A stretch of 64,000 bases of DNA, from NCBI GenBank assembly GCA_964610465.1, contig CAZSWA010000001.1:79023-143022 (forward strand), given 5' to 3'. A program made the position numbers and the translations under genes. Shown piece after piece: positions 1 to 61,242 of this stretch (positions are counted from its first letter, which is position 1; every line of letters begins with the position of its first letter). The DNA is from an uncultured Gammaproteobacteria bacterium. GTDB taxonomy: Bacteria > Patescibacteriota > Microgenomatia > Levybacterales > UBA12049. The notes beneath the pieces were generated by a model. The model worked only from the letters and a program-made list of their open reading frames with translations. It did no database searches and was not told the origin of the DNA.

Positions 1-275
1 TGAGCGTTTTTCGATCAAACAAATATCTCTATGCTCAGCTTATTGACGATACATCCGGAAAAACAGTTGCCAGCCTTTCTGAAAAAGCCTTATCTAAAAA
101 AGGAAAAACTGCTGCAACCAGAATGGATAACGCAAAAGAGTTAGGTATATCACTTGCAAAAATAGCGCTTGATAAGAAAATAAAGGAAGTAGTTTTTGAT
201 AAAGGAAGATATGCATATCATGGGAAAATAAAACAAATTGCAGAAGGAGCAAGAGAAGGAGGTCTTAAATTCTAA
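1..275 (+). CDS. rplR: 50S ribosomal protein L18, 3' part (5' end outside window)
   Basis: Frame starting at nt 3 translates to ...SVFRSNKYLYAQLIDDTSGKTVASLSE...ARMDNAKELG...KQIAEGAREGGLKF, then TAA at 273-275 overlapping the rpsE ATG. The sequence and position upstream of S5 are typical of L18. Confidence 0.85.
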   Translation, partial: SVFRSNKYLYAQLIDDTSGKTVASLSEKALSKKGKTAATRMDNAKELGISLAKIALDKKIKEVVFDKGRYAYHGKIKQIAEGAREGGLKF

Positions 276-766
276 TGGATCAAAGATATAGAAGAGACAC
301 ACAAAGTGAATTTCAAGAGCAGGTTGTCAAGATAAATCGTGTTTCCAAAAAAACCAAAGGAGGCAATAAAATAGGATTTTCAGCACTTGCGGTAGTTGGT
401 GATAAAAAAGGTAAAGTAGGAGTTGGACTTGGGAAAGCACCGGATGTATCATCTGCAATTCGCAAAGGTATATCACTTGCTAAAAAACATATGATTGAGG
501 TACCGATAGTGAACGGAACAATACCATTTCGAGTTGATATCAAAGTTGGCGCAGCACGTGTGATGCTCAAACCTGCTCCACCCGGAAGTGGAATTATCGC
601 AGGAGGAGCAGTAAGAAGTGTAGTTTCTGCTGCAGGAATACAAAATATCTCATCCAAAGTATTGGGAACTGACAATCAAGCAAGTAATGTACATGCAGCA
701 CTTGAAGCATTACGAAAACTCACAGAACTTTCTGCAAATTTGAAAGAAAGGGTAGTAACCAAATAA
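275..766 (+). CDS. rpsE: 30S ribosomal protein S5
   Basis: ORF-track protein ...RVSKKTKGGNKIGFSALAVVGDKKGKVGVGLGKA... matches conserved S5 motifs. It lies between L18 and L15. Confidence 0.95.
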   Translation: MDQRYRRDTQSEFQEQVVKINRVSKKTKGGNKIGFSALAVVGDKKGKVGVGLGKAPDVSSAIRKGISLAKKHMIEVPIVNGTIPFRVDIKVGAARVMLKPAPPGSGIIAGGAVRSVVSAAGIQNISSKVLGTDNQASNVHAALEALRKLTELSANLKERVVTK

Positions 767-8326: not shown

Positions 8327-8328
8327 TT

Positions 8329-18929: not shown

Positions 18930-20774
18930 TTATTTTTGGGGAGTTGGCTTTTTATCAAAATTTACTACGATGACAGTAAGATCATCAGTAGTCCCTCTTC
19001 TTCTTGCTTCATTTTTTATCAATCTACTTGCTTCACTTGGATCAGCTATGTCTCTAATTAAATCTTTGACTTGTTCATTCTTTAATACATCCCATATACC
19101 ATCAGACGCAATAATAAGACGTGAATTTCCATCTGGAAGTTGTATCTCATGAGCAATATATGGTTGTGCAATTATCTCTTTCCCATCTGTATCACCTAAC
19201 GATCGTGAGACTGCTAAACCTTGTACTCTTGGGACTCCATACGTATATACTGTTCCACCTGCTTTTTCAATTCTTGCTTGTTCTTCTGGATCATCAGGTT
19301 TATGATCATGAGAAAGTACATGAACTGTATCTCTCTTGACTAAGATAGCACGTGAGTCTCCAGCATTGGCAATATGAAGAATATCACCTTGTCGATAGGC
19401 AACTACTGCAGTTGTCCCAAATGATTTATCAGGATTATTTTTTATCCATAGATCTTTTATCTCCTTATCTGTTCGCTGAAATGCTTTATCTAAGGCTTTG
19501 TTCACATCTCCATTTGAATCTGCAAGCGCTTTTACAAAGTGTTCATGAAGTTTTTCAGATGCCAGTTGCGCAGCTTCGTACCCATATCCTTCTTCTGGTC
19601 CATGCCCATCATAGACTGCATAAAAAGATTCTTGAGGCTTATTTCCAAAGGCATCTTCTCTTACCAATCTATCTTCATTCTTTGCATGTCTTGTTCCTAC
19701 CTCTGAAATACTACCTGAGTTTATGGTTACTGGTACTTGTTCACTTTTATTTTCTTTTTTTCTTGTTACAACAAATGGTTTTGTTTCAAGAGGTTTTCCT
19801 GAAAAAACATCTCCTGATCTTGCTAGACTGTTTCCATTCGTACTACCATTTTTACCATTTGTTCCATCTGGCGTATGAGATGTACCATTAGCATGTTGAC
19901 CATTTTTCCCGTTAAAAATATCACCAGTTTGTCCAGAGTTTGCTCGGTTTCCATTATGATGTCCATTACCTGAATCCAAACCATTTTCCCAAAGAAATGT
20001 AACAATTTCTCTTGACTTTGAATCCTTTGCGAGCGGACCTAGTTGATAGACAATTCCGTCTCTTCCATATGCTTTTTTAAGAAATTCATCTTTTGCGACT
20101 TTGTCACTTTTTTTACTTACCAGCTCAATAAGTGCAGTTGTTACTTCCGCTGAGTTTTCTCCAAATACATTGGCAAGCCATTTAATACCTTCAAGATTAT
20201 CGAGTAGCTCGCTTCTTGTAACATGATTATTTTTTGGAGTATATACTTCAAGTACATCCTGTACAAATCGTTTTATATCTGATTCATGGTTTGGTCCGGT
20301 AAAATATCTATCATAAAACTCCTGTGCTTGTGTATCTGAAAAAGTTCCATCTGTAGGGATACCGAGTTTGTGATAGAGGATAGCTCTTTTTTTACCTTCG
20401 TCTTCATTAGCGAAATAAGTTTTGTTATTGTTGATAGTGTTAATAAAACTTTTTTTCCACCCAGTCATTTTTTGCTCATAAGGACTCGTATCACCGATTT
20501 CTCTATAATGCTTAATTCTCTCTTTGGTCGATGCATTTCTTACCACTCCATAGGTACCGTTAAGATTGCCAAGATAGTCACTCTTTAAAAGATTTTCAGT
20601 GAGTGCTCCATCCACTGGTTTATCGGGATTAAATGCCTCCTCATTATGACTTCCGATAAGAAGGCGTGCTTGAAGACCTATAATTTCATTCAGTCTTCTT
20701 TCAACTTCCGGAGGAGCTCCTCTATTTACTCCTGTATCTACTGTTGTTGTATTTGGCCTTAATCTTTCATTCAT
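18930..20774 (-). CDS. PP2C-family Ser/Thr protein phosphatase with ~350-aa uncharacterised N-terminal domain
   Basis: The C-terminal ~250 aa carries PP2C motifs (FYAVYDGHGP, TTAVVAYRQGDILHIANAGDSRAIL, IIASDGIWDV, DDLTVIVVNF). A Gly/Asn-rich linker (NGHHNGNRANSGQTGDIFNGKNGQHANGTSHTPDGTNGKNGSTNGN) precedes it. The N-terminal domain has no recognised motif. Confidence 0.8.
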   Translation of the reverse strand: MNERLRPNTTTVDTGVNRGAPPEVERRLNEIIGLQARLLIGSHNEEAFNPDKPVDGALTENLLKSDYLGNLNGTYGVVRNASTKERIKHYREIGDTSPYEQKMTGWKKSFINTINNNKTYFANEDEGKKRAILYHKLGIPTDGTFSDTQAQEFYDRYFTGPNHESDIKRFVQDVLEVYTPKNNHVTRSELLDNLEGIKWLANVFGENSAEVTTALIELVSKKSDKVAKDEFLKKAYGRDGIVYQLGPLAKDSKSREIVTFLWENGLDSGNGHHNGNRANSGQTGDIFNGKNGQHANGTSHTPDGTNGKNGSTNGNSLARSGDVFSGKPLETKPFVVTRKKENKSEQVPVTINSGSISEVGTRHAKNEDRLVREDAFGNKPQESFYAVYDGHGPEEGYGYEAAQLASEKLHEHFVKALADSNGDVNKALDKAFQRTDKEIKDLWIKNNPDKSFGTTAVVAYRQGDILHIANAGDSRAILVKRDTVHVLSHDHKPDDPEEQARIEKAGGTVYTYGVPRVQGLAVSRSLGDTDGKEIIAQPYIAHEIQLPDGNSRLIIASDGIWDVLKNEQVKDLIRDIADPSEASRLIKNEARRRGTTDDLTVIVVNFDKKPTPQK

Positions 20775-21024
20775 ACTTCTATTTTACTCCTATTGTCAAA
20801 TATAGATATAAAACTCTGTACAAATATCTTATAGCAAGCATAAGTGAATTGAATCTTAGGAAGGTAAATAACTAGTAAGAAATGCCATACAGACACAAGT
20901 TATAGGCTTAATATTTGCTTTTTTTTACACTCTCCAATATAATACTATAACTTAAAACAAGCTCAAGTTTATAATCTATTTGAAGAAGATAAGACTCTTT
21001 TCACGGCTTAGTAGATAAAAATAT

Positions 21025-26429: not shown

Positions 26430-29063
26430 ATGCAGAATTTTAGTACACCCATGATGAAACAATACATGGAGATTAAAAAAAACTACCAAGATTGTCTTCT
26501 GTTTTATCGTATGGGTGATTTCTATGAGCTCTTCATGGAAGATGCACACATAGGAGCCAGGATTCTTAATATTACTTTAACCAGCAAACATAACGGTAAA
26601 AATGGCAAAATACCAATGGCAGGGGTACCGTATCACGCAGTTGATGCGTATCTTAACAAACTCGTCAAAGCAGGCTACAAAGTCGCAATTTGTGAACAAG
26701 TAAGTCTCCCCAACAAATATGGCTTAGTAGATAGGGAAGTTGTGCGGGTAGTAACACCTGGTACCATGCTTGATGAAAAAGCACTTGAGAAGAAAGAAAA
26801 TAATTACATCATAAGTCTCTTGATTGAAGATGAAATCCTCGCGCTTGCAATTGCTGATATCTCAACTGGATATTTTTCACTGACACAGTTGCCTTTTGAA
26901 AATCTTTCCCAGGTACTTCGTGATGAATTATCACGCATCAATCCATCAGAATGTATTTTACCTGAATCACTTTACAATGATCCAGAACTCTTAAAACTCT
27001 TAAAAACTGAAAAGGGACTTAGCATTTATTGTTTTCATGAATGGGATGTCTTTGCACAAAAAGCTGAAGCGTATCTTAAAAAACATTTTGGAGTTGCGAC
27101 TCTTGCAGGTTTTGCGGTTGAGGACAAGTTGCTTGCGCTTCAAGCAGCTGCCTCGTTGCTTGGGTATCTTGAAGAAACCCAAAAAACCGCTGTCTCACAT
27201 ATTAAGAAAATTACTATCTTTTCAAGTGATGAGTATATGATGCTTGATAAATCGACTATGATAAACCTTGAATTATTTTCAACCATACGTGAACATGATA
27301 CACGAGGGACACTTCTTAATGTCTTAGATATGACGAAAACTGCGATGGGTGGAAGATTGCTTAAACAGTGGCTGAGAAAACCGCTTTTGCAAAAAAGTGA
27401 GATTGGCAAAAGGCATGATGCAGTCGAAGAGTTTTTAAAAAACAATACGGCCAGAAATCTTCTCCGCACACGACTTGAAGAAGTAAATGATATTGAAAGA
27501 ATCCTCTCTCGTCTATCAGTACATATTGGCAATGCAAGAGATATTATAAATCTTAAACAATCATTACATACTATACTAGATATCAAAGCAAGTTTAAAAG
27601 AATATGAAGCAAGTCTTATCCAGGAACTAACTGAGAAGATTTCTCAAAAAATAAAAAACACCATTGAATATATTGATATTTATATTATAGATGAGCCTCC
27701 AATTGACTTAAAATCCGGAGGTTTAATAAAAAACGGCGTAGATAAAGAATTAGATACACTTCGACATACCGTTAGCGGGAGTAAAAACTGGATTGCAAAA
27801 CTTGAAGAGGATGAAAAAGAAAGAACTGGTATTTCATCTCTTAAAATCAGATTTAATAAAGTGTTTGGATTTTATATTGAAATAAGTAGATCAAATCTTC
27901 ATCTAGTCCCTCAGGACTATATCCGCAAACAAACCTTAGTAAATGGTGAAAGGTTTATAACACCAGAGCTTAAACAACATGAAGAAATAATTCTGACCGC
28001 AGAAGAAAAAATAAATGAGCTGGAATATAGTATTTTTATAAAAGTATTAGCCCAAATACTTACTCAAATTGAAATGTTACAAGAAGCAGCACAAAGTATC
28101 GCAATACTTGATTGTCTTTTAAATTTTGCCAATCTTGCAGAGACTGAAGAATATGTAAGACCAAAAATGCTTTACTCTGGAGAGATACGAATTAAAAATG
28201 GACGTCACCCTGTAGTTGAAAAGTTACTTGATGAAATGCAATTTGTTCCTAATGATATTACTTTGGATAATATTAACCAGCAGCTTCTTCTTATTACAGG
28301 TCCTAACATGGCAGGAAAATCGGTATTGATACGCCAAGTTGCTCTCATTGTCCTTATGGCACAGATTGGATGTTTTGTTCCGGCTGAACAAGCATATATC
28401 AGTATTGTAGATAGGATTTTTGTACGAAGCGGTGCATCAGATGTCATCACTTCAGGTCTATCAACCTTTATGGTTGAGATGGTTGAGACCGCATATATCC
28501 TCCATCATACAACGCGTAACAGTCTTATCATAATGGATGAGATAGGACGGGGAACAAGTACCTATGATGGGATAAGTATTGCCTGGGCTGTTGCAGAACA
28601 TTTGGTTACTGCGATAAATCCATCGCCCAAAACGCTTTTTGCAACACATTATCATGAGCTGCAAGCACTTGAAGAACAATATCCGACAAAAATCAAAAAC
28701 TATCATATGGCTGTTGCTAACGAAAAAGGTGTACCGGTATTCCTTTACACTATTTTGCCAGGGGGTGCATCACATAGTTTTGGAGTTGCAGTTGCAAAGC
28801 TTGCGGGAATTCCTTTTCCTGTGATAGAAAAGGCACTTGAAGTTCTCTCGAGTCTTGAAAACCGGCAAACGAACCAGGAACAAAAAGTGGCATTATCATA
28901 TCAGGAACAACTGCCTTTAACTCAACACTTAATTCATAAAGAACTTGAACAGATAGATATTCATCAAATGACACCGCTTGAAGCGCTCAACAAATTGGCA
29001 GAACTCAAAGATAAAATAAAACTACTACAAAAAAAAGATTCAGACTTCATTGGTGCCGATTAA
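26430..29063 (+). CDS. mutS: DNA mismatch repair protein MutS
   Basis: N-terminal TPMMKQYMEIK...FYRMGDFYELF and Walker A GPNMAGKSV. Full-length 877 aa. Confidence 0.95.
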   Translation: MQNFSTPMMKQYMEIKKNYQDCLLFYRMGDFYELFMEDAHIGARILNITLTSKHNGKNGKIPMAGVPYHAVDAYLNKLVKAGYKVAICEQVSLPNKYGLVDREVVRVVTPGTMLDEKALEKKENNYIISLLIEDEILALAIADISTGYFSLTQLPFENLSQVLRDELSRINPSECILPESLYNDPELLKLLKTEKGLSIYCFHEWDVFAQKAEAYLKKHFGVATLAGFAVEDKLLALQAAASLLGYLEETQKTAVSHIKKITIFSSDEYMMLDKSTMINLELFSTIREHDTRGTLLNVLDMTKTAMGGRLLKQWLRKPLLQKSEIGKRHDAVEEFLKNNTARNLLRTRLEEVNDIERILSRLSVHIGNARDIINLKQSLHTILDIKASLKEYEASLIQELTEKISQKIKNTIEYIDIYIIDEPPIDLKSGGLIKNGVDKELDTLRHTVSGSKNWIAKLEEDEKERTGISSLKIRFNKVFGFYIEISRSNLHLVPQDYIRKQTLVNGERFITPELKQHEEIILTAEEKINELEYSIFIKVLAQILTQIEMLQEAAQSIAILDCLLNFANLAETEEYVRPKMLYSGEIRIKNGRHPVVEKLLDEMQFVPNDITLDNINQQLLLITGPNMAGKSVLIRQVALIVLMAQIGCFVPAEQAYISIVDRIFVRSGASDVITSGLSTFMVEMVETAYILHHTTRNSLIIMDEIGRGTSTYDGISIAWAVAEHLVTAINPSPKTLFATHYHELQALEEQYPTKIKNYHMAVANEKGVPVFLYTILPGGASHSFGVAVAKLAGIPFPVIEKALEVLSSLENRQTNQEQKVALSYQEQLPLTQHLIHKELEQIDIHQMTPLEALNKLAELKDKIKLLQKKDSDFIGAD

Positions 29064-29122
29064 AATTTTACCTAAAATGATATAATAAATACTCTTTAGG
29101 TAGAATACCTATTCCCTAACGA

Positions 29123-30817
29123 ATGAGTAAGATTTATCTTCTTTCTGACACTATTATTTCCAAAATTGCAGCAGGTGAGGTGATAGAACGTCCGGTGTAT
29201 GCAGTCAAAGAACTTATTGAAAATGCAATAGATGCAAACGCTGATACCATAAATATACATATTACCGATAGCGGACTAAAAAAAATTGTCGTAAATGACA
29301 ATGGCGAAGGGATGGATTATGAGGATATTCAGCAGTGTTTTAAACCACATACTACAAGCAAAATTTCCTCTGAGGAAGAATTACATGGGATACATACACT
29401 TGGGTTTCGTGGTGAGGCATTAGCTAGTATCGCAGCAATAAGTAATATGAGTATAAAAAGTAAAACCAAAGATGCCACGTCAGGGAGTCTTGTTGAGCTA
29501 GTCTCAGGAAAAGTTGAGAATATATCACTTACTGGTATGCCGCAGGGAACAAGTGTAAGTGTAGATAATTTGTTTTACCCAGTTCCAGGGAGGAAAAAGT
29601 TTCTTAAATCGCTTCGTACAGAGTATCGACATATTCTGGATTTGATGACTCATTTTGTGCTATCGTATCCTGATATCCATTTTACATTCTCCCACAATGA
29701 AAAAGTAATTTTCGACTTGCCAAAAAAACAAGATATAAGCGAAAGAATACTTCTTCTTTTTGGAAATAGAGTAGTAAAACAATTATTAAAAGTTTCACAT
29801 AGAAGTACGTATCTTACGATAAATGGATTCATTGGATATCCTCAATATACTACGCAAAATAGCAGTAAACAATTTCTTTTTATCAACAAAAGAAAAATAA
29901 CAGATAAAGTCATTAGTCTTGCAGTAAAGGAAGCATATGGCAATCTCATAGAATCTCATGCATTGCCTGTTTTTATTTTATTTCTGTCACTTCCTTATGA
30001 AGCAGTTGATGTCAATGTACATCCTCGAAAAGAGCAAATACATTTTGTGGATACAAAATCAATCTTTGATGAAGTATATAAAGCAGTTACAGATACTCTA
30101 CAAAATAATAATCTCACTTTTTTCAATCTCAGCATGGAAGATGGAATTGCATCAAGAAAAGGGAATCTTAATTCTTTCGCAGGAAAATATCTTAAAGAAA
30201 AGGTGAGCACCTGGGAAATGAATAACTTACATATACAAAAAGACTCAAGTATTCAGCAAGTACACAATCTTTATCTTATTGTCCAAACAAAAAACGGGTT
30301 GCTTTTTGTAGACCAGCACGCAGCTCATGAACGGATACTGTATGAGCAATTCTTAGAGCAATTTCAAAATAAAAGTGAACTACAAGAGCAGTATATTTTG
30401 GAAAAACCTCTCTCTTTTGATCTTTCTTTCTCAGATTCTGAACTTCTTAAAGAGAAGCAAAATGAATTATCATCATTGGGATTTGCCTTTGAGAGCAAAG
30501 AAGACAATATAGTACATGCCATAGCAGTACCTTTGTTGTTTAAAGATAGAAAAATTCCAAAACTTGTCAATGAACTTCTTGATGAATTAAGAGAAGAAAA
30601 ATCATACCAAAAAATTGACAACCAATCTCAAAGAATGCTTGCATATCTTGCATGTAGAAGCGCCATAAAAGCAGGTGATAGTCTTACTAAACAGCAAGCA
30701 AAAGAGTTACTTGAGAAATTGGAAAAAACCAAAAATAATGCTACTTGTCCTCATGGGAGACCGACAAAAGTCGAGATACCTTTGCCTCAAATACATAAGT
30801 ATTTTAAAAGAGTTTAG
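29123..30817 (+). CDS. mutL: DNA mismatch repair protein MutL (endonuclease-proficient type)
   Basis: GHKL ATPase motifs ELIENAIDA and GFRGEAL are present. The C-terminal endonuclease motifs VDQHAAHERILYEQF, ACRSAIKAGD and CPHGRPT are also present. Confidence 0.9.
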   Translation: MSKIYLLSDTIISKIAAGEVIERPVYAVKELIENAIDANADTINIHITDSGLKKIVVNDNGEGMDYEDIQQCFKPHTTSKISSEEELHGIHTLGFRGEALASIAAISNMSIKSKTKDATSGSLVELVSGKVENISLTGMPQGTSVSVDNLFYPVPGRKKFLKSLRTEYRHILDLMTHFVLSYPDIHFTFSHNEKVIFDLPKKQDISERILLLFGNRVVKQLLKVSHRSTYLTINGFIGYPQYTTQNSSKQFLFINKRKITDKVISLAVKEAYGNLIESHALPVFILFLSLPYEAVDVNVHPRKEQIHFVDTKSIFDEVYKAVTDTLQNNNLTFFNLSMEDGIASRKGNLNSFAGKYLKEKVSTWEMNNLHIQKDSSIQQVHNLYLIVQTKNGLLFVDQHAAHERILYEQFLEQFQNKSELQEQYILEKPLSFDLSFSDSELLKEKQNELSSLGFAFESKEDNIVHAIAVPLLFKDRKIPKLVNELLDELREEKSYQKIDNQSQRMLAYLACRSAIKAGDSLTKQQAKELLEKLEKTKNNATCPHGRPTKVEIPLPQIHKYFKRV

Positions 30818-51856: not shown

Positions 51857-52324
51857 ATGGATAAGAAGATATATTTAACAAAAGAAGGTTTAGAGGAGCT
51901 TAAAAAAGAATACGAACAATTAGTAAAAGAAAGAAGACCTGAAGTGGTTGTGCGCCTTTCTATAGCACGAGATATGGGTGACCTATCAGAGAATGCAGAA
52001 TATACTGCTGCGCGGGAAGAATTATCTTTTATTGATGGAAGAATAGATGAGCTTGAGGAAATAATTAAGCAAGCAGTTCTTATTAGTCAGATTTCTTCAA
52101 AAGGAGCAAAAACTGTCAATATAGGCTCTAAAGTTACCGTAAAACTTGATGGAAAAAAAGAAATTTTTACTGTAGTAGGCGAATGGGAAGCAGATCCAAA
52201 AGAGAAAAAAATTTCACATGCATCTCCTCTTGGAAAAGCATTAATGGGGAAAGGTATAGGAGAACATGTAGAAGTACAAGCTCCCGCTGGAAAGATTCTT
52301 TATACAATACTCTCTATAAGTTAA
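51857..52324 (+). CDS. greA: transcription elongation factor GreA
   Basis: A coiled-coil N-terminus with the acidic tip (DLSENAEYTAAREE) and a C-terminal FKBP-like domain. Confidence 0.9.
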   Translation: MDKKIYLTKEGLEELKKEYEQLVKERRPEVVVRLSIARDMGDLSENAEYTAAREELSFIDGRIDELEEIIKQAVLISQISSKGAKTVNIGSKVTVKLDGKKEIFTVVGEWEADPKEKKISHASPLGKALMGKGIGEHVEVQAPAGKILYTILSIS

Positions 52325-52402: not shown

Positions 52403-52924
52403 CTACATTCTTTCTTTTGAAGGCAAATGAGGTTTGATTTTTTCACCAATATACAGTGGTTGTAAAGGTTCACTCGCATCTGTTTTCCCTCCATAAATTG
52501 CAGTATGTTGTGTTAACTCTGCAATGATTTTCGCATCATTTGCAATATGGATTTTTGAGTATTCTTCTAGCTTTCCAGTATCGTATACTTCAGATAATGG
52601 ATACAGACCAACTTGTTCATCATCAAAAAGACCAGTTTCTCGAACGAGACGAATATCTCCTAAATTTTCTGGAACATAATTTTCAAAAGCACAGATAAGT
52701 GTTAATGTACGTTCACCTGTTCTCCATCCCTCTTTATTGGAATTATATGAGGGGTCTCTTTCTGATGGATCAGTAAGAGTATCTCTAAAAGAGACAGAAA
52801 CGAAACCACGCAACAGGTGAGTAATTGCTTGGGATGGATTTTCTCGCACTTCTTCGAAGCTAAGATCATCTGTTTTGGTGTGTTTTTTAATAACTATTTT
52901 TTTGCTTTGCTCAATTTTGTCCAT
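52403..52924 (-). CDS. hypothetical protein
   Basis: 173-aa ORF with no motif recognised. Confidence 0.35.
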   Translation of the reverse strand: MDKIEQSKKIVIKKHTKTDDLSFEEVRENPSQAITHLLRGFVSVSFRDTLTDPSERDPSYNSNKEGWRTGERTLTLICAFENYVPENLGDIRLVRETGLFDDEQVGLYPLSEVYDTGKLEEYSKIHIANDAKIIAELTQHTAIYGGKTDASEPLQPLYIGEKIKPHLPSKERM

Positions 52925-53007: not shown

Positions 53008-54192
53008 ATGGCGCGGAAGAAAATAAGTGAATATAAAACAAAAAAACTCTTGCATGACTATTTACATACCCATTATGAAGGAATGCGTTTTGAAAGTAAT
53101 AAGGATGAGTTGTCACTTATAGATACATTAGATGCAAAGAAAAAATATGTCCTCAAAGTGGACGAAGGCGTTAAAAAAAGATTTAGAAAAGGATTGGTTT
53201 TACTTAACAAAACACCTTTGGAAATAAAAGAGGAATTAAAAAGAATTCAGGAAACAGGATACAAAAATTTCATTATTGAACCATTTTTATCACACGCAGA
53301 AGAGAGTGAAAAATATCTTTCAATTGAACGAGTACGCGAAGGATATCTGGTATTTTATTTTGAAAAAGGCGGAATAGATATTGAGAATTATAGAAAAGAT
53401 ATTAAAAAAAGTATTTTATCTTCATATTCTGACGGAGAAGAAATTACAAAATATTTAGGTATTGATAAAAATCTTTTTGAAAGTATTTTGAAATTTTTTG
53501 ATGAATATTATTTCTCGTTTCTTGAAATAAATCCTCTGGTTATCCAAAACAATAGAATCATCTTTCTTGATATTGCAAGTGAAGTAGATAGTGCAGGAGA
53601 ATTTTTTGTGCATAACGGATGGGATAGCGAAGATTTCCAAGAAGGAAAAGAGATACAGAAAACTGATGAAGAAAAAAATATTGATGAATTATCAAGAAAA
53701 AGTCAGGCCTCATTTAAATTAGAAGTACTAAATCCCAACGGAAGTATTTTCATGCTTTTATCAGGAGGAGGAGCAAGTATCGTTCTTGCAGATGAAACAT
53801 ATAATTTAGGATATGGGAAGGCTGTTGCCAACTATGGAGAATATAGCGGTAATCCGAATGAAGAAGAAGCATATTTGTATACCAAAAATTTATTAAGTCT
53901 TCTCCTTAAGTCAAATGTACAAAAAAAAGTTTTGATTATTGGTGGAGGAGTTGCAAATTTTACTAATATTTTAATAACCTTTAAGGGTGTCATTGCAGCA
54001 TTAAAAGAAGTCGCAGAAAAACTTAAGGAACAGCAAGTTAAAGTATTTGTGAGACGAGGAGGACCAAATCAAGAAGAAGGACTAAAAGTAATGGAGCAAT
54101 TTCTAAATGAAAACGGAATTTTAGGTGCAGTTCGCGATCCAAAAACTTCTTTACCAGAAATAATAACACTTGCAATAAAAGAGTTACAATAA
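53008..54192 (+). CDS. aclB: ATP-citrate lyase small (ATP-grasp) subunit
   Basis: Colinear strong similarity to the N-terminal part of canonical ATP-citrate lyase, recalled from memory. Matches include ISEYKTKKLLHDYL, FIIEPFLSHAEESEKYL...YLVFYFEKGGIDI, YFSFLEINPLVI, KLEVLNPNGSIFMLLSGGGASIV...ANYGEYSGNPNEEE, and LIIGGGVANFTNILITFKGV...VFVRRGGPNQEEGLKVM. Confidence 0.85.
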   Translation: MARKKISEYKTKKLLHDYLHTHYEGMRFESNKDELSLIDTLDAKKKYVLKVDEGVKKRFRKGLVLLNKTPLEIKEELKRIQETGYKNFIIEPFLSHAEESEKYLSIERVREGYLVFYFEKGGIDIENYRKDIKKSILSSYSDGEEITKYLGIDKNLFESILKFFDEYYFSFLEINPLVIQNNRIIFLDIASEVDSAGEFFVHNGWDSEDFQEGKEIQKTDEEKNIDELSRKSQASFKLEVLNPNGSIFMLLSGGGASIVLADETYNLGYGKAVANYGEYSGNPNEEEAYLYTKNLLSLLLKSNVQKKVLIIGGGVANFTNILITFKGVIAALKEVAEKLKEQQVKVFVRRGGPNQEEGLKVMEQFLNENGILGAVRDPKTSLPEIITLAIKELQ

Positions 54193-54196
54193 AAAT

Positions 54197-55990
54197 ATGT
54201 TAGATATCGCAAGACTTAGAAAAAACAAACTACATATTATTTCCATTGGAAGTTATCCATCAATCATCCAATCGATATTGGATTTTGATTATCTTGTAGG
54301 AAAACAAACACCAAGTATAAAAGCAATTATTGCAACAGGACGCAATAGTGAACGATATTTTTGGGGAAAGAAAGAAATTCTTTTGCCGGTTTTTACTAGT
54401 GCGCAAAGTATTCCTCAGAAAGATTCCATTAATTTTTTTCTTAATCTTTCATCGGGTCGTAGAGTTTTTGCTTCAACTTGTGAATTATTAGATATATTGC
54501 CTGCTATGTTAGGAGGAGTTGTTTTTGCTGAAAACGTTCCTGAACAACATGCAATAGCACTTTACCAAAAAATAAAAGACAGTGACAGATTTATTGTCGG
54601 TCCGGCAAGTATAGGAGTTCTTATCCCGAATATGATAAAAGCAGGTGCAATTGGTGGAGTAGATGCGAGACAATTTGTGGAATCCTCCCTTTTTGATTCG
54701 GGAAGTGTTGCAGTTCTTTCATCATCAGGAGGAATGACCAATGAATTGATTCGTACAGTAGCACAAAGCGGAAAAAGACTTTCTTTTGCATTGTCTTTTG
54801 GCGGTGAAAGATTTCCTATAACTACTCCAAAAGACGCATTTCTTGCAGCAGAAAAAGATGACAATACAAAAACTATCGTATACTTTGGCGAATTGGGAGG
54901 GACTGATGAATTTGATATCGCAGATTTACTACAATCAAAAAAAGTAACAAAACCGGTTGTGTGTTATATCGCAGGAGTTATTGCAGACATATTTCCTACT
55001 CCACCTCAATTTGGTCATGCCAAAGCATTGGCACAAAAAGAAAATGAAACTGCACAAGAGAAAAGAGATGTTCTAAAAAAAGCGGGTGCAAAAGTTGCTG
55101 ATTCATACACTCAATTTCTTGAGTTTATCAAGGACATAGAAGATACCTCTATGAAAAGTGAAAGAGAATATACTACAATAATTAAGTCTATGGAAAACAG
55201 ACAACATGCGCTTATCACAACAAGTATCTCAGGGGATAAAGATGGGAATCCCCAGATTTTGGGTGAGAATTTATTAGATGCTGCCAAAAATAATTCGTTT
55301 GCGGCAATTGTTGGTTCGTTATTCTTAGGACAAAAAATAAAATCAAAAGAGCTTGAAGAGTTTGTTGATTTTGTTCTCAGACTTCTTGTTGATCACGGAC
55401 CTTATGTGTCAGGTGCTGTCAATACCATCATTTCAGCTCGCGCCGGACGGGATTTAGTATCAGCCCTTAGTACTGGACTTTTAACTATTGGTCCGCGTTT
55501 TGGTGGCGCAATAAACCAAGCAGCAGAGAATTGGATACAAGGAGTTACGACTTCTCAAGATCAATCTCTATTTGTTGAAGATTTTGCAACACACAAAAAA
55601 TATATTTCAGGAATAGGGCACAAGAAATACAGAATAGATTTGCCAGACCCAAGAGTTAAAGAAATCTTAAGATTTGCAGAAAAACTTGAGGAAAAAAGAT
55701 TTACGAATTTTGCTCTTGCAATTGAAAAAATCACAACTGCAAAAAAAGGAAATTTAATCTTAAATGTTGATGGTGCAATTGCAGCAGTGCTTTTGGATAT
55801 TCTTTCAGAAAGAGAACACCTACAGGATGATGAATTACAAAAACTTACCCAGATAGAATTCTTCAATGGTTTGTTTGTCCTTTCCCGTTCTGTTGGCTTT
55901 ATGGCACATTATTTTGATCAGAAACGATTGGATGAAGGATTGTTTAGATTGGATGAGAATTTAGTAGCAGAAGTTGGAGAAAAAGAATAA
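54197..55990 (+). CDS. aclA: ATP-citrate lyase large subunit (CoA-binding, phospho-His, citrate-synthase-like domain)
   Basis: A CoA-binding/ligase domain is present. The catalytic His lies in PPQFGHAKALAQKENETAQEK (cf. ACL QFGHAGA). The citryl-CoA lyase domain is LLVDHGPYVSGAVNTIISARAGRDLVSALSTGLLTIGPRFGGAI...GIGHKKYRIDLPDPRV, which tracks the ACL C-terminal region closely. Confidence 0.85.
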   Translation: MLDIARLRKNKLHIISIGSYPSIIQSILDFDYLVGKQTPSIKAIIATGRNSERYFWGKKEILLPVFTSAQSIPQKDSINFFLNLSSGRRVFASTCELLDILPAMLGGVVFAENVPEQHAIALYQKIKDSDRFIVGPASIGVLIPNMIKAGAIGGVDARQFVESSLFDSGSVAVLSSSGGMTNELIRTVAQSGKRLSFALSFGGERFPITTPKDAFLAAEKDDNTKTIVYFGELGGTDEFDIADLLQSKKVTKPVVCYIAGVIADIFPTPPQFGHAKALAQKENETAQEKRDVLKKAGAKVADSYTQFLEFIKDIEDTSMKSEREYTTIIKSMENRQHALITTSISGDKDGNPQILGENLLDAAKNNSFAAIVGSLFLGQKIKSKELEEFVDFVLRLLVDHGPYVSGAVNTIISARAGRDLVSALSTGLLTIGPRFGGAINQAAENWIQGVTTSQDQSLFVEDFATHKKYISGIGHKKYRIDLPDPRVKEILRFAEKLEEKRFTNFALAIEKITTAKKGNLILNVDGAIAAVLLDILSEREHLQDDELQKLTQIEFFNGLFVLSRSVGFMAHYFDQKRLDEGLFRLDENLVAEVGEKE

Positions 55991-55994: not shown

Positions 55995-56492
55995 CTATTC
56001 TACTTTAAATCCATGTTCTCCTCCAAATTTTCCTAGAGCTTCCTTGACTCTTTCTTCTAAATCATGTGGTGTATCTTCACGCATACTAAATACAAGTTGA
56101 TAACCTGCTGGAAATTCTTTTTGACCAGGAGTAATTTTAGTTATTAATTGAAGTCCTGCTTCTTGCTCATAGCGTTCTCTTAGTACTCTATATATTTTTT
56201 TGGCTTTCTCATAATCTTCTATATTTGAATAATATGTTCCTCCTAAAGAGTTAGGATACTCATGATATCTTCTAAAATCCTCAATGCTTTTATCAAATAA
56301 ATAATATTCGGTAAAATATCTTCTAGTTCCCATTATTACTTGAGTAATGCCGTTACGAGTGTGCTCTCTATCTAGGGTAACTTTAAGTAATTTTTCTGGG
56401 TTTTCTTGTTCTTTTCTTTTTGTTTCTTCTGATGGGATTCTATTTTCACCCTGTTCTTTCATATTCCATAGGATTATATCATTAGTAGACAA
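55995..56492 (-). CDS. hypothetical protein
   Basis: 165-aa ORF with no motif recognised. Confidence 0.35.
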   Translation of the reverse strand: MSTNDIILWNMKEQGENRIPSEETKRKEQENPEKLLKVTLDREHTRNGITQVIMGTRRYFTEYYLFDKSIEDFRRYHEYPNSLGGTYYSNIEDYEKAKKIYRVLRERYEQEAGLQLITKITPGQKEFPAGYQLVFSMREDTPHDLEERVKEALGKFGGEHGFKVE

Positions 56493-56557: not shown

Positions 56558-57526
56558 ATGCAAATACATCAAGATTTTGACCTTTCAAAGGTTCTTTGGT
56601 ATCAAATCGGAGGGAAGGCGAGGTATTTTATCCAAGCTGAGAATAGAGAAGATATTGAGAGGACAGTAGATTTTGCTGACAAGAACAACGTTACCAAACT
56701 TTTTATTTGCGGACTTGGTTCAAATCTTATTTTTACCGACGAATATTTTGACGGATTGGTATTACAAATTAGTCTTAAAGATAAAGGGAAAACAATACAA
56801 CTATCAAATGAAGGGTTTGTTGAATGTTTTGCGGGTGAAGAATTAGATAGTCTTATCCAATTTGCGTTTGCAAATAACTTAACAGGTTTTGAATGGGCTG
56901 GAGGATTACCCGGAACTGTGGGTGCTGGGATAAGAGGAAATGTTGGTGCGTTTGGAGGAGAAATAAAAGACGCATTCTTTGATACTGAAGTAATGCAACT
57001 CTATAAAACTTCTTTTTCATTTCTAAACTATAAATACCATGATATGCATTTTTCTTATAGAAATAGTCTTATTAAAGAAGCGCGGAATCTCATCATTGTA
57101 CAAGCAAAATTTTTTCTAAAACATGCAACAAGTGAAGAATTACAAAAAGCAAAAGAGAAATATGAAGAAAATATTTTGTATCGCAAAACTCACCATCCGC
57201 TTGAATATCCAACCTGTGGCTCTGTTTTTAAAAATATAAAAGAGCCAGAACATGTCCAAAAAATTCTTTCTGTCTGGCCAGATATAGAAGAGAAAGTAGA
57301 ACGAAATTGGTATGGGAAAGTATCAATGGGATATGTAATAAAACGTCTTGGTTTTTCAGGATATAAAGTTGGAGGTATGCAAGTGTCAGAAAAGCACGCC
57401 AATTTTATCGTGAATTTAGGAGAGGCAAAAGCAAAAGATGTCAAAACAATTATCAAAACAATCCAGGAAAAAGTATTTGAAGCATTCGGGTTTATTCCAG
57501 AAATTGAGGTAGAGATAGTAGAGTAA
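56558..57526 (+). CDS. murB: UDP-N-acetylenolpyruvoylglucosamine reductase MurB
   Basis: An N-terminal FAD-binding domain (YQIGGKARYFIQAENREDI...LFICGLGSNLIF) and a C-terminal MurB domain. Confidence 0.8.
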   Translation: MQIHQDFDLSKVLWYQIGGKARYFIQAENREDIERTVDFADKNNVTKLFICGLGSNLIFTDEYFDGLVLQISLKDKGKTIQLSNEGFVECFAGEELDSLIQFAFANNLTGFEWAGGLPGTVGAGIRGNVGAFGGEIKDAFFDTEVMQLYKTSFSFLNYKYHDMHFSYRNSLIKEARNLIIVQAKFFLKHATSEELQKAKEKYEENILYRKTHHPLEYPTCGSVFKNIKEPEHVQKILSVWPDIEEKVERNWYGKVSMGYVIKRLGFSGYKVGGMQVSEKHANFIVNLGEAKAKDVKTIIKTIQEKVFEAFGFIPEIEVEIVE

Positions 57527-57630: not shown

Positions 57631-57656
57631 AACCCCTTATATAAGGGGTTTTTTTG
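57631..57656 (+). terminator. intrinsic terminator after murB
   Basis: AACCCCTTA-tat-TAAGGGGTT hairpin followed by T7. Confidence 0.7.
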
Positions 57657-57668
57657 TGGAGAAAAAAT

Positions 57669-58934
57669 ATGCAAAATGAAATTTTAAGACAGCTCACAAA
57701 CAATGAATACCTTGAGAGAACTTCTTGGGAACAAGAAGATGTTCGGCGAGGAAAAAATCTTTCTTATTTTTCAGAAAGTGTTATTCAGGATGATTGGGTG
57801 AAACAAGCACTTGTGCAATCAGTACATCTTAATAGTGAACTTACTGAAGCAAAATACCTTGCTCCGTTTCATGAGCCTGCATCTGTTTTTCGTGGAGCAT
57901 TTTCAATTGATGTAATTGATCCTATTTCAATCATTCCCAATAAAGATTTTTATACCGATCCTCCTGAAAGAATCTTATCTGTTTTTGCATCAAGTTCTGT
58001 TCGTCGTGGGAAAAAAGAGTTATTTGCTGATTATATTAGCGAGATTAAACAAAAACTTTACCATTATACAAGAAAAGCAAATCCTGTTGAGTTTGTTCTG
58101 CCAACGCTTCCATTTAAAGATCAAAATCCTTTCACAACAAGACATAGTATTGATGCAGTTGATTTAGGAGAATATCTCTTTTTTGCTCAACTTCGGGATA
58201 TTACTACTGCTATAACAGAGACATATCCACCAGGAGTAAGAATTACACTTCTTACAGATGGTTTAGTGTATAAAGACTTATTTGCAAATGGGCAACGAAA
58301 TGCGATAGAAGAATATAGAAGAAACTGCCAACAGATTAGGGATGAGATGGGTTTAAAAGGAGTTATCGATATTGTTGATATGGAATGCATTGTGGGAAAA
58401 GATGCGGACTTCTATGATATACAACAAAAAATGCAAGAGAGGATACAAATACTAAGCGAATCAGATACAACAGTTGCATTACATATACGATCTCTTGCTC
58501 ATGGAATGCGTTGGAATATACCAATACACGGACATTCATATGATGAGTATAGACAAATGTTTGAGCAAAATAACCTTTCTCAAGAAATAACTAAGCAGAC
58601 CTACAATACTGCAGTAAACTATGCATCATTTCTCCTTGCAATGAGACGTACGCGAGCTATTGAACGAGCATTTCCTCATGCTGTGAGATTGACAGTACAT
58701 CCCAAAAAAGCACCACAAATACCGATTCATTTAGTAAATAATCGTTCCATAATATTTCCTTATAATGGCGTACCAGTTGTGTCAGAGAAAAGAATGGAAG
58801 AAACTAAAAATATCAGACAATCAACGAAAATAATGAGATTTGCCGATGTGTTAGATTTTCCATCAGCAAAAGCCGTCTATGTCGCTGATAAAGCTGAACC
58901 ATTCTATTATCAAATTGATGAAAGGAGTGTATAA
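57669..58934 (+). CDS. PvcA/Dit1 (isonitrile synthase) family homolog with ~130-aa N-terminal extension
   Basis: EFVLPTLPFKDQNP (cf. PvcA FVLPAFPCKSP), GVRITLLTDGLVYKDLF (cf. ITIVSDGHVFSD) and AVRLTVHPKK (cf. LRLSIHPHS). The start is assigned to the ATG at 57669, downstream of the terminator. The family assignment is from remembered PvcA motifs. Confidence 0.5.
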   Translation: MQNEILRQLTNNEYLERTSWEQEDVRRGKNLSYFSESVIQDDWVKQALVQSVHLNSELTEAKYLAPFHEPASVFRGAFSIDVIDPISIIPNKDFYTDPPERILSVFASSSVRRGKKELFADYISEIKQKLYHYTRKANPVEFVLPTLPFKDQNPFTTRHSIDAVDLGEYLFFAQLRDITTAITETYPPGVRITLLTDGLVYKDLFANGQRNAIEEYRRNCQQIRDEMGLKGVIDIVDMECIVGKDADFYDIQQKMQERIQILSESDTTVALHIRSLAHGMRWNIPIHGHSYDEYRQMFEQNNLSQEITKQTYNTAVNYASFLLAMRRTRAIERAFPHAVRLTVHPKKAPQIPIHLVNNRSIIFPYNGVPVVSEKRMEETKNIRQSTKIMRFADVLDFPSAKAVYVADKAEPFYYQIDERSV

Positions 58935-58941
58935 TACTGGT

Positions 58942-61242
58942 ATGTTTTGGGCAGACACACTGTTAGAAGGAAGAAAAAATAAAGAAGTCATTAATGATTC
59001 GTGGACTCCGTCTGGAATCGTCCATATGGGATCTTTGAAAGGTCCAATCATCCACGACACACTTTTCCGTATTTTAAAAGAAAGAAAACAGGAGGTTACT
59101 TTTATGTATGGGTTTGATGATATGGATCCAATTGATGGAATTCCTCCAGATCTGAAAGGTTTGTTTGAAAAATACCTTGGTATACCTATATTCCTTGCTC
59201 CATCTCCTGATGGGAAAGGTTCGTTTGGTGATTTCTACGGAAATAAAATGAAACACATTCTTGATACGTTAGATATTCATCCTGATAGATTGTATAAAAC
59301 AAGTGAAGTGTACAAAAGTGGAGAATTTGATAATGCGATTAGGTATGTATTGAATAATGCTGATGCAGTGAGAAAGGTATATGAAGAAGTGTATAAAAAG
59401 CCAATTGCAAACGATTGGTATCCATTGCAAGTTATTTGTCCAAATTGTGGAAAACTTGGAACGACAAATGTTACTGGATGGGATAGGAAAGAGGTTGCAT
59501 TTATTTGCGAAAAAAATCTTGTGCAATGGGCAGAAGGATGCGATTTTACAGGCAAAATTTCTCCTTTTAAAGGAAATGCCAAAATGCCTTGGAAAGTAGA
59601 ATGGGCTGCAAAATGGTGGACATTTGGAGTAACAATTGAAGGGGCTGGTAAAGATCATGCATCAGCAGGTGGTTCTTATGATGTTGCAATGAAACTCTGC
59701 AAAGAAGTCTTTAAAAAAGAGACACCGTTAAAGATTGCATACGAATTTTTCCTTTCAGGCGGCAAAAAAATGTCTTCTTCAAAAGGTACCGGTTTGACAG
59801 GTGAGGAACTTTTGGAAGCATTGCCACCGGAAGTAGTAAGATTTTTAATGATTAAAAATCCACCAAATCAAGCAGTTGAATTTACTCCCAGAGATACTGA
59901 TACAATACAGAATTTGTTTGATGAGTATTTTAAAGCAGCGGATACATATTATCAAAAATCAGATGAGAACTTGGCAAGAGCATTTGAACTGTCTCAAATC
60001 GGCAGTCCAAAGAGGATCCCCGCACTCCGAATGAGAGTAATTTCGCAATTAGTACAGATGCCTAACAAAGAAGAAGAAATAAGAAGAGAAGGACTGGAAG
60101 AATGGTCCCGTTTTGCCAGAGTATGGGTTGAAAAATATGCTCCTGAATCAGAAAAATTTTTGGTGCAAGAAAAAGTTCCGCAAGCTGCAAAATCACTTTC
60201 TGAGACACAAAAACACTATTTACAAACGATTGCAAATTGTATAGACAAAAATTGGAATGCGGAAGATTTTCAAAAAAAACTTTATGAATCGGCAAAAGAT
60301 TTAGGAGTTTTACCAAAAGAAGCATTTTCTGCAATTTATCTGTCTCTTATTGGGAAGGATCATGGTCCGAAAGCTGCTTGGCTCCTTTTATCCCTTGAGA
60401 AAGAGTTTATTAAAAAAAGATTCACTGAAGTTACTACAGAAAAACAAAGAGCAAGCCTTCGTCATGATGAGAGTCTGCTAAGCTCAACCGATGACCTCAC
60501 GCCGAGGGGAAGTAAGAGTCAAAAAAATGATAAACAAATTCAACTTCTCAATAAACCTGAGATATTTTCTATTGGCGTGGAGATTAAACAAAAATTTTCT
60601 TCAATTTCAGTCGGTATTGCAGTAATTAAAGGAGTAAATATACAGAAAACAAACTCGGAATTAGAAAAAGAAAAACAAGAATTATTGACTATTTTAAAGG
60701 ATTTAACAACAGAACAATTAGGTCAGTATCCTGAGATTGCGAGTTATCGAAAATTATATAAAGCAATGGGTATCGATTGGCATTCACGTCGTCCAAGTCC
60801 TGAAGCATTACTTCGGAGAATAGCCCTTAAAAAAGGATTATATACAGTTAATACATGTGTTGACGCATATAACCTTATCGTTATGAAACATCGTATCTCG
60901 GTCGGTGCTTTTGATTTAGATAGAATTGAGTTTCCCACAGGTTTACGTTTCGCAAAAAACGGTGAAGAGATACTATTACTTGGTGAACAACAACCAACAC
61001 AATATAAAGAAGGAGAAATCGCCTATTTCGATAAACAAGGTGGATACAATATAGATTTTAACTATCGTGATGCGCAACGGACAGCTGTGACAGAACAAAC
61101 AAAAAATATCTATATTAATGTTGATGGTATATATGAGATTACTACTGAGAGAGTAGAAGAAGTTTTACATGAAGCTTGCAATATAATCCTAAAATACTGC
61201 GGTGGGAAAATAGAAACTTTTGGAGTAGAAACTGGTAAATGA
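58942..61242 (+). CDS. lysS: class I lysyl-tRNA synthetase fused to a C-terminal B3/B4 (PheT-type) domain
   Basis: Class I HIGH-like SGIVHMGSLKG and KMSKS-like GGKKMSSSKGTG motifs sit in a LysRS-I-like catalytic core of ~520 aa. The extra C-terminal ~260 aa contains LYTVNTCVDAYNLIVMKHRISVGAFDLDRI, which matches the B3/B4 domain consensus. Possible starts are 58918 or 58942. Confidence 0.75.
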   Translation: MFWADTLLEGRKNKEVINDSWTPSGIVHMGSLKGPIIHDTLFRILKERKQEVTFMYGFDDMDPIDGIPPDLKGLFEKYLGIPIFLAPSPDGKGSFGDFYGNKMKHILDTLDIHPDRLYKTSEVYKSGEFDNAIRYVLNNADAVRKVYEEVYKKPIANDWYPLQVICPNCGKLGTTNVTGWDRKEVAFICEKNLVQWAEGCDFTGKISPFKGNAKMPWKVEWAAKWWTFGVTIEGAGKDHASAGGSYDVAMKLCKEVFKKETPLKIAYEFFLSGGKKMSSSKGTGLTGEELLEALPPEVVRFLMIKNPPNQAVEFTPRDTDTIQNLFDEYFKAADTYYQKSDENLARAFELSQIGSPKRIPALRMRVISQLVQMPNKEEEIRREGLEEWSRFARVWVEKYAPESEKFLVQEKVPQAAKSLSETQKHYLQTIANCIDKNWNAEDFQKKLYESAKDLGVLPKEAFSAIYLSLIGKDHGPKAAWLLLSLEKEFIKKRFTEVTTEKQRASLRHDESLLSSTDDLTPRGSKSQKNDKQIQLLNKPEIFSIGVEIKQKFSSISVGIAVIKGVNIQKTNSELEKEKQELLTILKDLTTEQLGQYPEIASYRKLYKAMGIDWHSRRPSPEALLRRIALKKGLYTVNTCVDAYNLIVMKHRISVGAFDLDRIEFPTGLRFAKNGEEILLLGEQQPTQYKEGEIAYFDKQGGYNIDFNYRDAQRTAVTEQTKNIYINVDGIYEITTERVEEVLHEACNIILKYCGGKIETFGVETGK

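Follow-up and report, generated by a model that had tools for sequence, protein, structure and literature searches.

What would a bacterium of the Candidate Phyla Radiation (CPR) do with a complete ATP-citrate lyase (ACL)? CPR bacteria are thought to be host-dependent for most building blocks, and the source of acetyl-coenzyme A (acetyl-CoA) in members without pyruvate dehydrogenase or a tricarboxylic acid (TCA) cycle is poorly defined. The question is raised by two adjacent genes, aclB and aclA, in a 64 kb stretch of DNA (the window; positions 79,023 to 143,022 of contig CAZSWA010000001.1, GenBank assembly GCA_964610465.1), which a first-pass annotation had described as a canonical two-subunit ACL in a reduced, CPR-like genome. 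The pair very probably encodes a functional heteromeric ACL (EC 2.3.3.8), as judged from the domain architecture, the full-length collinearity with solved ACLs and the conserved phosphohistidine, all of which bear out that first description.

A two-subunit ATP-citrate lyase

The two genes lie on the same strand with only 4 nt between them (junction TAA-AAAT-ATG), and because of this arrangement they almost certainly form a single transcription unit; scans for promoters and terminators gave nothing exceeding the shuffled expectation. AclB matches the Pfam families Citrate_synth_N, an ATP-grasp domain (PF24948, 109.9 bits against a cutoff of 83), and Citrate_bind (PF16114, 191.7 bits against a cutoff of 26.8, E 1.1e-56), and AclA carries Ligase_CoA (PF00549, 48.7 bits) and then Citrate_synt (PF00285, 74.3 bits) in one chain of 597 residues (Table 1).

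As measured by alignment, the match to solved ACLs is far beyond chance (E 1e-66 to 1e-103), and this similarity is sufficient to assign the fold. AclB residues 1-393 align with residues 1-420 of ACLY-A of M. concilii (Methanosaeta/Methanothrix) with an E value of 2.7e-66 and with human ACLY at 4.5e-68, and AclA residues 18-586 align with residues 19-602 of M. concilii ACLY-B (E 4.8e-103); the AclA alignment with human ACLY spans human residues 503-1086 (E 1.4e-100). The two halves of AclA are also recovered separately. Residues 18-315 align with human ACLY 503-801 (5te1_A, E 5.1e-51; the separate 5tde_B chain, E 4.4e-52), and the lyase module aligns with structures of the isolated citryl-CoA lyase module of ACL (6hxn, E 2e-36; 6hxk, E 6.7e-48). 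These alignments to the solved M. concilii and human enzymes agree with the earlier statement that both open reading frames (ORFs) are collinear with known ACL along their whole lengths.

Set against reference sequences for ACL, citryl-CoA synthetase, citryl-CoA lyase and succinyl-CoA synthetase, both proteins score far higher with ACL. For AclB and AclA respectively, the bit scores are 233 and 341 with human ACLY (against solved structures), 227.5 and 349 with M. concilii ACLY-A/B, 124 and 226 with Chlorobium ACL, and 58 and 75 with Hydrogenobacter citryl-CoA synthetase; AclA scores 65.5 with Hydrogenobacter citryl-CoA lyase and 73 or less with the alpha subunit of succinyl-CoA synthetase, and no match of AclB to a succinyl-CoA synthetase beta subunit was found at E<0.01 among solved structures. 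The NCBIfam models for succinyl-CoA synthetase remain below their cutoffs (TIGR01016, 53.8 against 375.6; NF004230, 115.7 against 336), and those for stand-alone citryl-CoA lyase match the C-terminal third of AclA only. Identity as a succinyl-CoA synthetase was rejected on these scores, far under the cutoffs, and on the presence of extra ACL-specific domains. A two-enzyme system of citryl-CoA synthetase and citryl-CoA lyase was likewise rejected, both on the scores and on the fusion of the lyase to the alpha subunit. The citryl-CoA synthetase role that had been offered as an alternative finds no support, because the lyase module is fused and intact.

Table 1. Coordinates of the predicted ACL genes, their domains and other features of the window.
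Feature	Position (nt)	Strand	Remarks
aclB, predicted ACL beta subunit	53008..54192	+	394 aa, ATG start; ATP-grasp and citrate-binding domains
ATP-grasp (nucleotide-binding) domain of AclB, aa 2-205	53011..53622	+	PF24948
Citrate-binding domain of AclB, aa 218-391	53659..54180	+	PF16114
aclA, predicted ACL alpha subunit	54197..55990	+	597 aa, ATG start; CoA-binding/phosphohistidine part fused to citryl-CoA lyase module
CoA-binding and CoA-ligase (phosphohistidine) domains of AclA, aa 18-315	54248..55141	+	From the alignment with human ACLY 503-801
Phosphohistidine loop QFGHAKA of AclA, aa 271-277	55007..55027	+	QFGHA, aa 271-275, nt 55007-55021; His274 codon, 55016-55018
Citryl-CoA lyase (citrate-synthase-like) module of AclA, aa 337-590	55205..55966	+	Asp525 codon, 55769-55771
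murB, UDP-N-acetylmuramate dehydrogenase	56558..57526	+	TIGR00179, 183.8 bits (cutoff 144.5); conserved neighbour, outside the ACL itself
greA	51857..52324
ORF upstream of aclB	52403..52924	-	173 aa; no Pfam match
ORF downstream of aclA	55995..56492	-	165 aa; no Pfam match
Ribosomal protein S5	275..766
Ribosomal protein L15	769..1215		2 nt after the S5 gene
DIT1_PvcA-family protein	57654..58934	+	Pyoverdine/dityrosine biosynthesis, isonitrile-synthase-like
Class I lysyl-tRNA synthetase (lysS)	58879..61242	+	About 775-787 aa; C-terminal B3_4 domain

Active-site residues and the phosphohistidine loop

Residues were mapped by counting along printed alignments, with the letters confirmed in the translated sequence and the human numbering verified. 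The functions given here are those that we take the human ACLY residues to have from the structural literature on that enzyme, and the human citrate-binding residues are G281-283, G309, N346, T348 and R379, a list whose numbering was verified on the 3mwd alignment. In AclA, the phosphohistidine is His274 (human His760), so that the histidine pointed out earlier in the QFGHA motif is indeed kept, and the glutamate assisting it is Glu112 (human Glu599). The lyase module has His400 (human His900), His475 (human His975) and the catalytic Asp525 (human Asp1026, and the position of D541A in M. concilii structure 6znw), together with Phe435 (human Phe935) in place of the citrate-synthase histidine (His274 of citrate synthase). 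The ATP-grasp residues of AclB are Lys50, Lys56, Lys57 and Arg58, corresponding to human Lys58, Lys64, Arg65 and Arg66, and its citrate-binding residues are Gly253-255 (human Gly281-283), Gly281 (Gly309), Asn317, Phe318 and Thr319 (Asn346, Phe347 and Thr348) and Arg350 (Arg379). With the exception of Lys57, all of these are invariant in alignments of 19 AclA and 17 AclB homologues from CPR genomes. Since these homologues are only 52-68% identical to the window proteins, the invariance shows purifying selection on an apparently active enzyme.

The loop around the phosphohistidine departs from the canonical form. Other ACLs carry a GHAGA signature at this site (Kanao et al. 2001, as cited in PMC6851277), which AclA lacks while retaining the catalytic histidine itself: its loop reads QFGHAKA, with Lys276 standing where GHAGA has glycine, and G273, H274, A275, K276 and A277 are invariant in the 19 CPR sequences. 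When about 60 ACL sequences, each representing a cluster at 50% identity, were compared, GHAK[AS] was present in 13 of the 14 representatives of the clade to which AclA belongs and in none elsewhere; those outside the clade mostly have GHAGA or GHAGS, and the remaining member of the GHAKA clade, P0242, retains GHAGA. The clade also reads GIGH[KR]KY[RS] where other ACLs read GIGH[RK]VKS, and has a shorter ATP-grasp domain and inter-domain linker, AclB being some 25-30 residues under its human and M. concilii counterparts in length.

We treat GHAKA and the related changes as a clade signature and not as a sign of lost function, because every catalytic residue is retained. It could be argued that these same changes, with a lysine at the His+2 position that is confined to the clade, a rewritten GIGH motif and a shortened AclB, altered or abolished the activity, so that the enzyme acts on another hydroxy-tricarboxylate or dicarboxylate or serves as a citryl-CoA synthetase/lyase only; however, the citrate-contact residues, the phosphohistidine, its assisting glutamate and the lyase aspartate and histidines are all retained and invariant, the intact fused lyase module speaks against a synthetase-only role, and P0242 belongs to the clade with an unchanged GHAGA. 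We consider such a loss or change of activity improbable.

The genome carrying the pair

The window starts with the end of a ribosomal protein operon of CPR type, in which the L15 gene comes directly after that for S5 and L30 is missing from between the two, as is known of CPR bacteria. The nearest named relatives are metagenome-assembled genomes (MAGs) of Candidatus Levybacteria / Levyibacteriota, and at least 10 genes around aclBA are collinear with the Levyibacteriota MAGs L006, L010 and L013. The collinear block comprises RmuC, TsaD, DUF192, a nucleotidyltransferase, VanW, a solute-binding protein, GreA, aclB, aclA, murB, LysRS and UbiA, and the order c9-greA-aclB-aclA-murB-lysS recurs in many Levyibacteriota MAGs. 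AclA is 61-68% identical to its relatives, and the flanking GreA, RmuC and UbiA are 61-72% identical in the collinear Levyibacteriota loci. The G+C content is even at 0.31-0.39 across the window (aclB 0.31, aclA 0.36, window 0.35). On the ribosomal operon and the synteny, the contig is taken to be part of a genuine CPR (Levybacteria-like) genome, and the CPR-like label given to it at first was right.

These observations also dispose of the view that the genes are a eukaryotic or archaeal contaminant, or a mis-assembled or mis-binned fragment. The top matches among solved structures are indeed archaeal (M. concilii) and human, and one homologue lies on a 3 kb contig labelled Sulfurimonas; but aclBA sits mid-contig in DNA of even G+C content, flanked on either side by bacterial housekeeping genes, three contigs of up to 150 kb that were assembled independently carry the same AclA protein, and the gene order is that of independently assembled Levyibacteriota MAGs. 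Contamination, which the first-pass annotation had named as the outcome that would overturn its proposal, is refuted by the synteny and has next to no probability left. Recent lateral transfer was rejected together with contamination, on the synteny, the G+C content and an identity that matches that of the neighbouring genes.

Many database entries under the title 'uncultured Gammaproteobacteria bacterium' (TPA_asm SRP..._co...) share the order of at least 10 genes with both the window and the Levyibacteriota MAGs (L004, L008, L009, L028, L038 and many others, including the 1.61 Mb chromosome OZ246394.1). Because of this synteny with Levyibacteriota, the Gammaproteobacteria titles are unreliable and look wrong.

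No TCA-cycle context

The part of the genome inspected was the 64 kb window and about 10 kb of upstream flank, which adds only more of the ribosomal operon, out of a genome of about 1 Mb, and Pfam annotation covered nearly all sizeable ORFs of the window. No TCA-cycle gene or other central-carbon gene was found among these, in line with the earlier remark that nothing in the window suggests a TCA-cycle context. In the window and its annotated flanks there is no 2-oxoglutarate:ferredoxin oxidoreductase, fumarate reductase, aconitase, isocitrate dehydrogenase or malate dehydrogenase, and neither a gene of pyruvate metabolism nor a transporter linkable to citrate was present among the Pfam-annotated window ORFs; tdh, kbl and glmS were searched for in the window and not found. 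What the window does contain are genes for ribosomal proteins, SecY, nucleotide kinases, RpoA, S-adenosylmethionine synthetase, an ABC exporter and the cell envelope, along with RecA/RecX, RNase Y, a UvrD-type helicase, TsaD, GreA, MurB, LysRS and MutS/MutL.

ACL is the classical marker of the reductive TCA cycle and is used as such in metagenome surveys (marker tables, PMC6662431), and on that ground aclBA might be the citrate-cleaving step of autotrophic CO2 fixation. None of the other enzymes of the cycle lies in the 64 kb window, however. The genome, at about 1 Mb, is that of a CPR bacterium, and within the same superphylum a soil Microgenomates study reported the related phylum Pacebacteria to be without a TCA cycle and without a route to acetyl-CoA or oxaloacetate (PMC6064768). 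The clade is moreover closer to the eukaryotic/M. concilii ACLY type than to the Chlorobium enzyme of the reductive cycle. On these grounds a role in carbon fixation is very improbable, and where aclA and aclB serve as markers of the reductive TCA cycle in metagenome surveys, CPR matches would be false positives for autotrophy.

Distribution and phylogeny

The distribution of the enzyme was followed by scanning a single genome for each GTDB species with two peptides typical of the clade, PQFGHAKA and DQKR[LI]DEG. In this species-representative collection 231 stretches encode a relative of the ACL, and the details of relatives given here come from the best 80 of the 231. The informative titles among these 80 are Levyibacteriota, Saccharibacteria/Saccharimonadia, Woesebacteria, Roizmanbacteria, Magasanikbacteria and unclassified Patescibacteria, all of them CPR. 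The pair is therefore less exceptional than had been supposed at first, the more so as a stand-alone ACL from a CPR genome was published in 2019 (PMC6851277). In a representative library of 1.84 billion proteins, AclA-type proteins form only 140 clusters at E<1e-30, and full-length AclA-type proteins are therefore a small family.

A neighbour-joining tree of 61 representatives with 200 bootstraps, which is approximate, distance-based and unrooted/midpoint-rooted, supports a core clade at 99.5% and a wider clade at 100%, the sole taxon name among the additions to the wider clade being Dojkabacteria. A looser grouping, with 63% support, adds a second Saccharibacteria clade and a cluster of DPANN archaea (Norongarragalinales). 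On the trimmed alignment, AclA is about 30% identical to the Chlorobiaceae enzyme of the reductive TCA cycle and 36-37% identical to eukaryotic representatives. As read from these comparisons, aclBA has apparently been inherited vertically within a large, CPR-specific clade of ACL.

Genes beside aclBA in the relatives

Gene neighbourhoods were compared in 81 loci (the 80 related loci and the window), in which ORFs were called and clustered; the neighbours of the 80 related loci are partly annotated. aclB adjoins aclA in 78 of the 81, the others being cut by contig ends or having a small intervening ORF. The commonest of the neighbours counted is murB (38 loci), which occurs in three arrangements, lies within 4 kb of aclA in 35 and is on the same strand in 37, followed by EF-G, found upstream in 27.

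Several of the less frequent neighbours have to do with acetyl-CoA. Genes for L-threonine 3-dehydrogenase (Tdh) and a Kbl-type glycine C-acetyltransferase directly adjoin aclBA in about 10 loci, either upstream or downstream; these assignments are best NCBIfam matches slightly under the equivalog cutoffs, and the two enzymes jointly convert threonine to glycine and acetyl-CoA. The loci concerned include L004, L006 (5966-8796), L008, L013, L017, L029, L031, L044 and L067. An AMP-forming acetate-CoA ligase is encoded in three (L005, L019 at 7072-8814, and L028; NF003313, 745 bits against a cutoff of 729). The amino-sugar gene glmS lies within a few genes in about seven loci, and ddl is present in four. 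The neighbours of aclBA thus share acetyl-CoA as a substrate or product, or belong to murein and amino-sugar synthesis. Amino-sugar synthesis uses acetyl-CoA by way of GlmU, and GlmU itself was not seen among these neighbours. In a single locus (L047), a di/tricarboxylate carrier of the MatC_N/CitMHS (SLC13-like) type is encoded three genes downstream of aclA at 9206-10456 on the minus strand; homologues of this carrier occur in Roizmanbacteria, Dojkabacteria, Nanoarchaeota and Anaerolineales.

Reaction and direction

By analogy with the ACLY literature, and from the residues conserved here, we infer a mechanism of four steps. ATP bound in the ATP-grasp domain of AclB would phosphorylate His274 on the swinging loop of AclA; the phosphate would then move to citrate in the citrate-binding domain of AclB, giving citryl phosphate; attack by CoA would displace the phosphate to form citryl-CoA; and the fused lyase module, with Asp525 and His475, would split citryl-CoA into acetyl-CoA and oxaloacetate. 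The analysis shows the gene structure, the domains, the conserved residues, the clade, the synteny and the identity of the genome; that the enzyme is active, which way it runs, where its citrate comes from and where the acetyl-CoA goes are likewise inferred.

The scenario towards which we lean is that the ACL supplies acetyl-CoA by cleaving citrate scavenged from a host or from the surroundings. Its role would be that of the enzyme in the eukaryotic cytosol, which supplies acetyl-CoA outside any reductive TCA cycle. The demand for acetyl-CoA would probably come from acetylations, for example in the synthesis of UDP-N-acetylglucosamine and murein precursors, and oxaloacetate would be a by-product passed on to aspartate, malate or pyruvate. 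Cleavage is favoured because the window shows no reductive TCA context, and because Pacebacteria are reported to have neither a TCA cycle nor a route to acetyl-CoA or oxaloacetate (PMC6064768). It is favoured also because the acetate-CoA ligase and Tdh/Kbl cluster with aclBA in relatives, much like an island for acetyl-CoA supply, because ACL spends one ATP on each acetyl-CoA where the AMP-forming ligase spends two ATP equivalents, and because the clade is similar to the ACLY-type enzymes, whose role in eukaryotes is the same.

Several points weigh against the cleavage of scavenged citrate. The ACL reaction is close to equilibrium, and its direction therefore cannot be fixed from sequence alone. 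The carrier and ACL are co-located in only one of the 81 loci, and none of the other carrier homologues examined showed this arrangement; one of them, on a contig whose length of 11,330 bp seemed to match that of an ACL-bearing contig, proved to lie on a different contig that lacks ACL. In genomes as compact as those of CPR bacteria, gene neighbourhood is weak evidence of function, and the adjacency of murB may come in part from shared ancestry. The invariant glycine-to-lysine change in the phosphohistidine loop may affect the enzyme.

The main rival is that the ACL works chiefly in the opposite direction and makes citrate with a gain of ATP (acetyl-CoA + oxaloacetate + ADP + inorganic phosphate to citrate + ATP + CoA). 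It could in this way conserve the thioester energy of acetyl-CoA made from threonine by Tdh/Kbl or from pyruvate, and, in an organism without citrate synthase, could provide the citrate for a short oxidative branch leading to 2-oxoglutarate and glutamate. The near-equilibrium of the reaction and the rarity of a citrate transporter near aclBA (the single locus described above) count for this reverse direction as well as against cleavage, no citrate synthase was seen in the window, and the tdh/kbl genes that adjoin aclBA in about 10 loci produce acetyl-CoA that could equally feed the reverse reaction. Desulfobacter postgatei is reported to run its ACL in the direction of citrate synthesis. Citrate synthesis would need oxaloacetate in stoichiometric amounts and a way to dispose of the citrate, however, and no aconitase, isocitrate dehydrogenase, phosphoenolpyruvate carboxylase or pyruvate carboxylase was seen in the window; the AMP-forming acetate-CoA ligase beside aclBA in three loci would create a futile cycle, and the Kbl/Tdh pair is itself reversible. 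We regard operation mainly in reverse as unlikely, and citrate cleavage as the direction to which these observations point.

A wider proposal, which we put forward tentatively and with some doubt, joins these observations. The GHAKA-type ACL would be an ancient trait, passed down vertically, that characterises several CPR lineages (Levybacteria, Saccharimonadia, Woesebacteria, Roizmanbacteria, Magasanikbacteria and Dojkabacteria), and it would be their principal or only route to acetyl-CoA, drawn from host citrate. The enzymes of the second Saccharibacteria clade and of DPANN archaea may be the nearest relatives of the GHAKA clade, a placement that is weakly supported at 63% bootstrap. The lysine in the phosphohistidine loop would be a mechanistic adaptation under this proposal; alternatively, the enzyme would run backwards as an ATP-conserving citrate synthase. 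If true, the proposal would amount to a metabolic dependency that links growth of the symbiont to overflow of the host TCA cycle and provides the acetyl donor for cell-wall amino sugars. The conservation of the ACL in at least 231 stretches suggests that hosts may pass citrate to their symbionts as a kind of currency, and that citrate may be worth adding to cultivation media.

Other features of the window

The flanking genes named in the first-pass annotation, greA, murB and hypotheticals, are all in place, the hypotheticals being two minus-strand ORFs directly beside aclBA (Table 1). These two have no counterpart at the same positions in most of the collinear relatives, and some relatives have other small minus-strand ORFs without a match between aclA and murB.

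Among the various other genes of the window, we note a DIT1_PvcA-family gene downstream of murB, unexpected in a reduced CPR genome, whose 3' end overlaps the start of lysS. The lysyl-tRNA synthetase encoded by lysS is of class I and ends in a B3_4 domain of the type found in PheRS beta. Segments 18930-24006 and 26430-30817 hold a gene for a 993-residue Ser/Thr kinase divergent from one for a 614-residue PP2C phosphatase, and complete MutS and MutL genes. Retention of mismatch repair has been noted in soil Microgenomates (PMC6064768).

Comparison with known systems

The novelty of the locus is modest: the ACL is well preserved and common in its lineage, and the ACL of a sister CPR lineage was interpreted in the same way earlier. 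Within the incomplete body of literature searched, we found nothing on an ACL clade of Levybacteria/Microgenomates, on the GHAKA signature or on the synteny. A 2022 preprint includes CPR and DPANN sequences among homologues of citrate-cleavage enzymes, and a 2025 groundwater study reports aclAB as enriched in Saccharimonadia MAGs, as a statistic only, without sequence, synteny or function (PMC12577380). The groundwater genes are most likely members of the same CPR clade, because the 80 relatives include loci titled Saccharibacteria or Saccharimonadia. The GHAKA loop is of minor enzymological interest, and knowledge of ACL itself is unchanged by the finding.

The closest precedent within CPR is the stand-alone two-subunit ACL of a Gracilibacterium (BD1-5), a CPR bacterium without a TCA cycle, for which conversion of externally derived citrate to acetyl-CoA and oxaloacetate was proposed and in whose description ACL was said to be 'rarely detected in CPR' (Sieber et al. 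2019, mBio; PMC6851277). The window ACL is likewise a stand-alone two-subunit enzyme in a CPR genome and is given the same citrate-scavenging interpretation. The Gracilibacterium enzyme, however, has GHAGA, is most similar to archaeal proteins and was suggested to have come by lateral transfer (PMC6851277), whereas the window ACL has GHAKA and belongs to a large and apparently vertical clade that spans Levybacteria, Saccharimonadia and other Microgenomates. With its GHAGA loop and archaeal appearance, the Gracilibacterium ACL therefore represents another lineage.

Among characterised enzymes, ACLY-A/B of M. concilii (PDB 6hxi, 6znw) has the same two-subunit layout, and together with human ACLY (6poe and others) it is collinear with the window ACL over the full length and shares the phosphohistidine, the assisting glutamate and the citrate-binding and lyase residues. 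The window ACL differs from both in having GHAKA in place of GHAGA, a shorter ATP-grasp domain and linker, and a CPR host. Eukaryotic ACLY resembles the role proposed here in that it supplies acetyl-CoA outside the reductive TCA cycle; the human enzyme is a single fused chain, unlike the two subunits of the window. AclBA of Chlorobium limicola/Chlorobiaceae (PDB 6hxj) has the same two-subunit architecture and catalyses the same reaction, but is only about 30% identical (124 and 226 bits) and sits in an autotrophic reductive TCA cycle, of which there is no sign here. CcsAB (6hxq) and Ccl (6hxp) of Hydrogenobacter have homologous domains and carry out the same overall chemistry in two steps, but the Hydrogenobacter lyase is a separate protein, whereas that of the window is fused to the alpha subunit, and the scores are low at 58, 75 and 65 bits.

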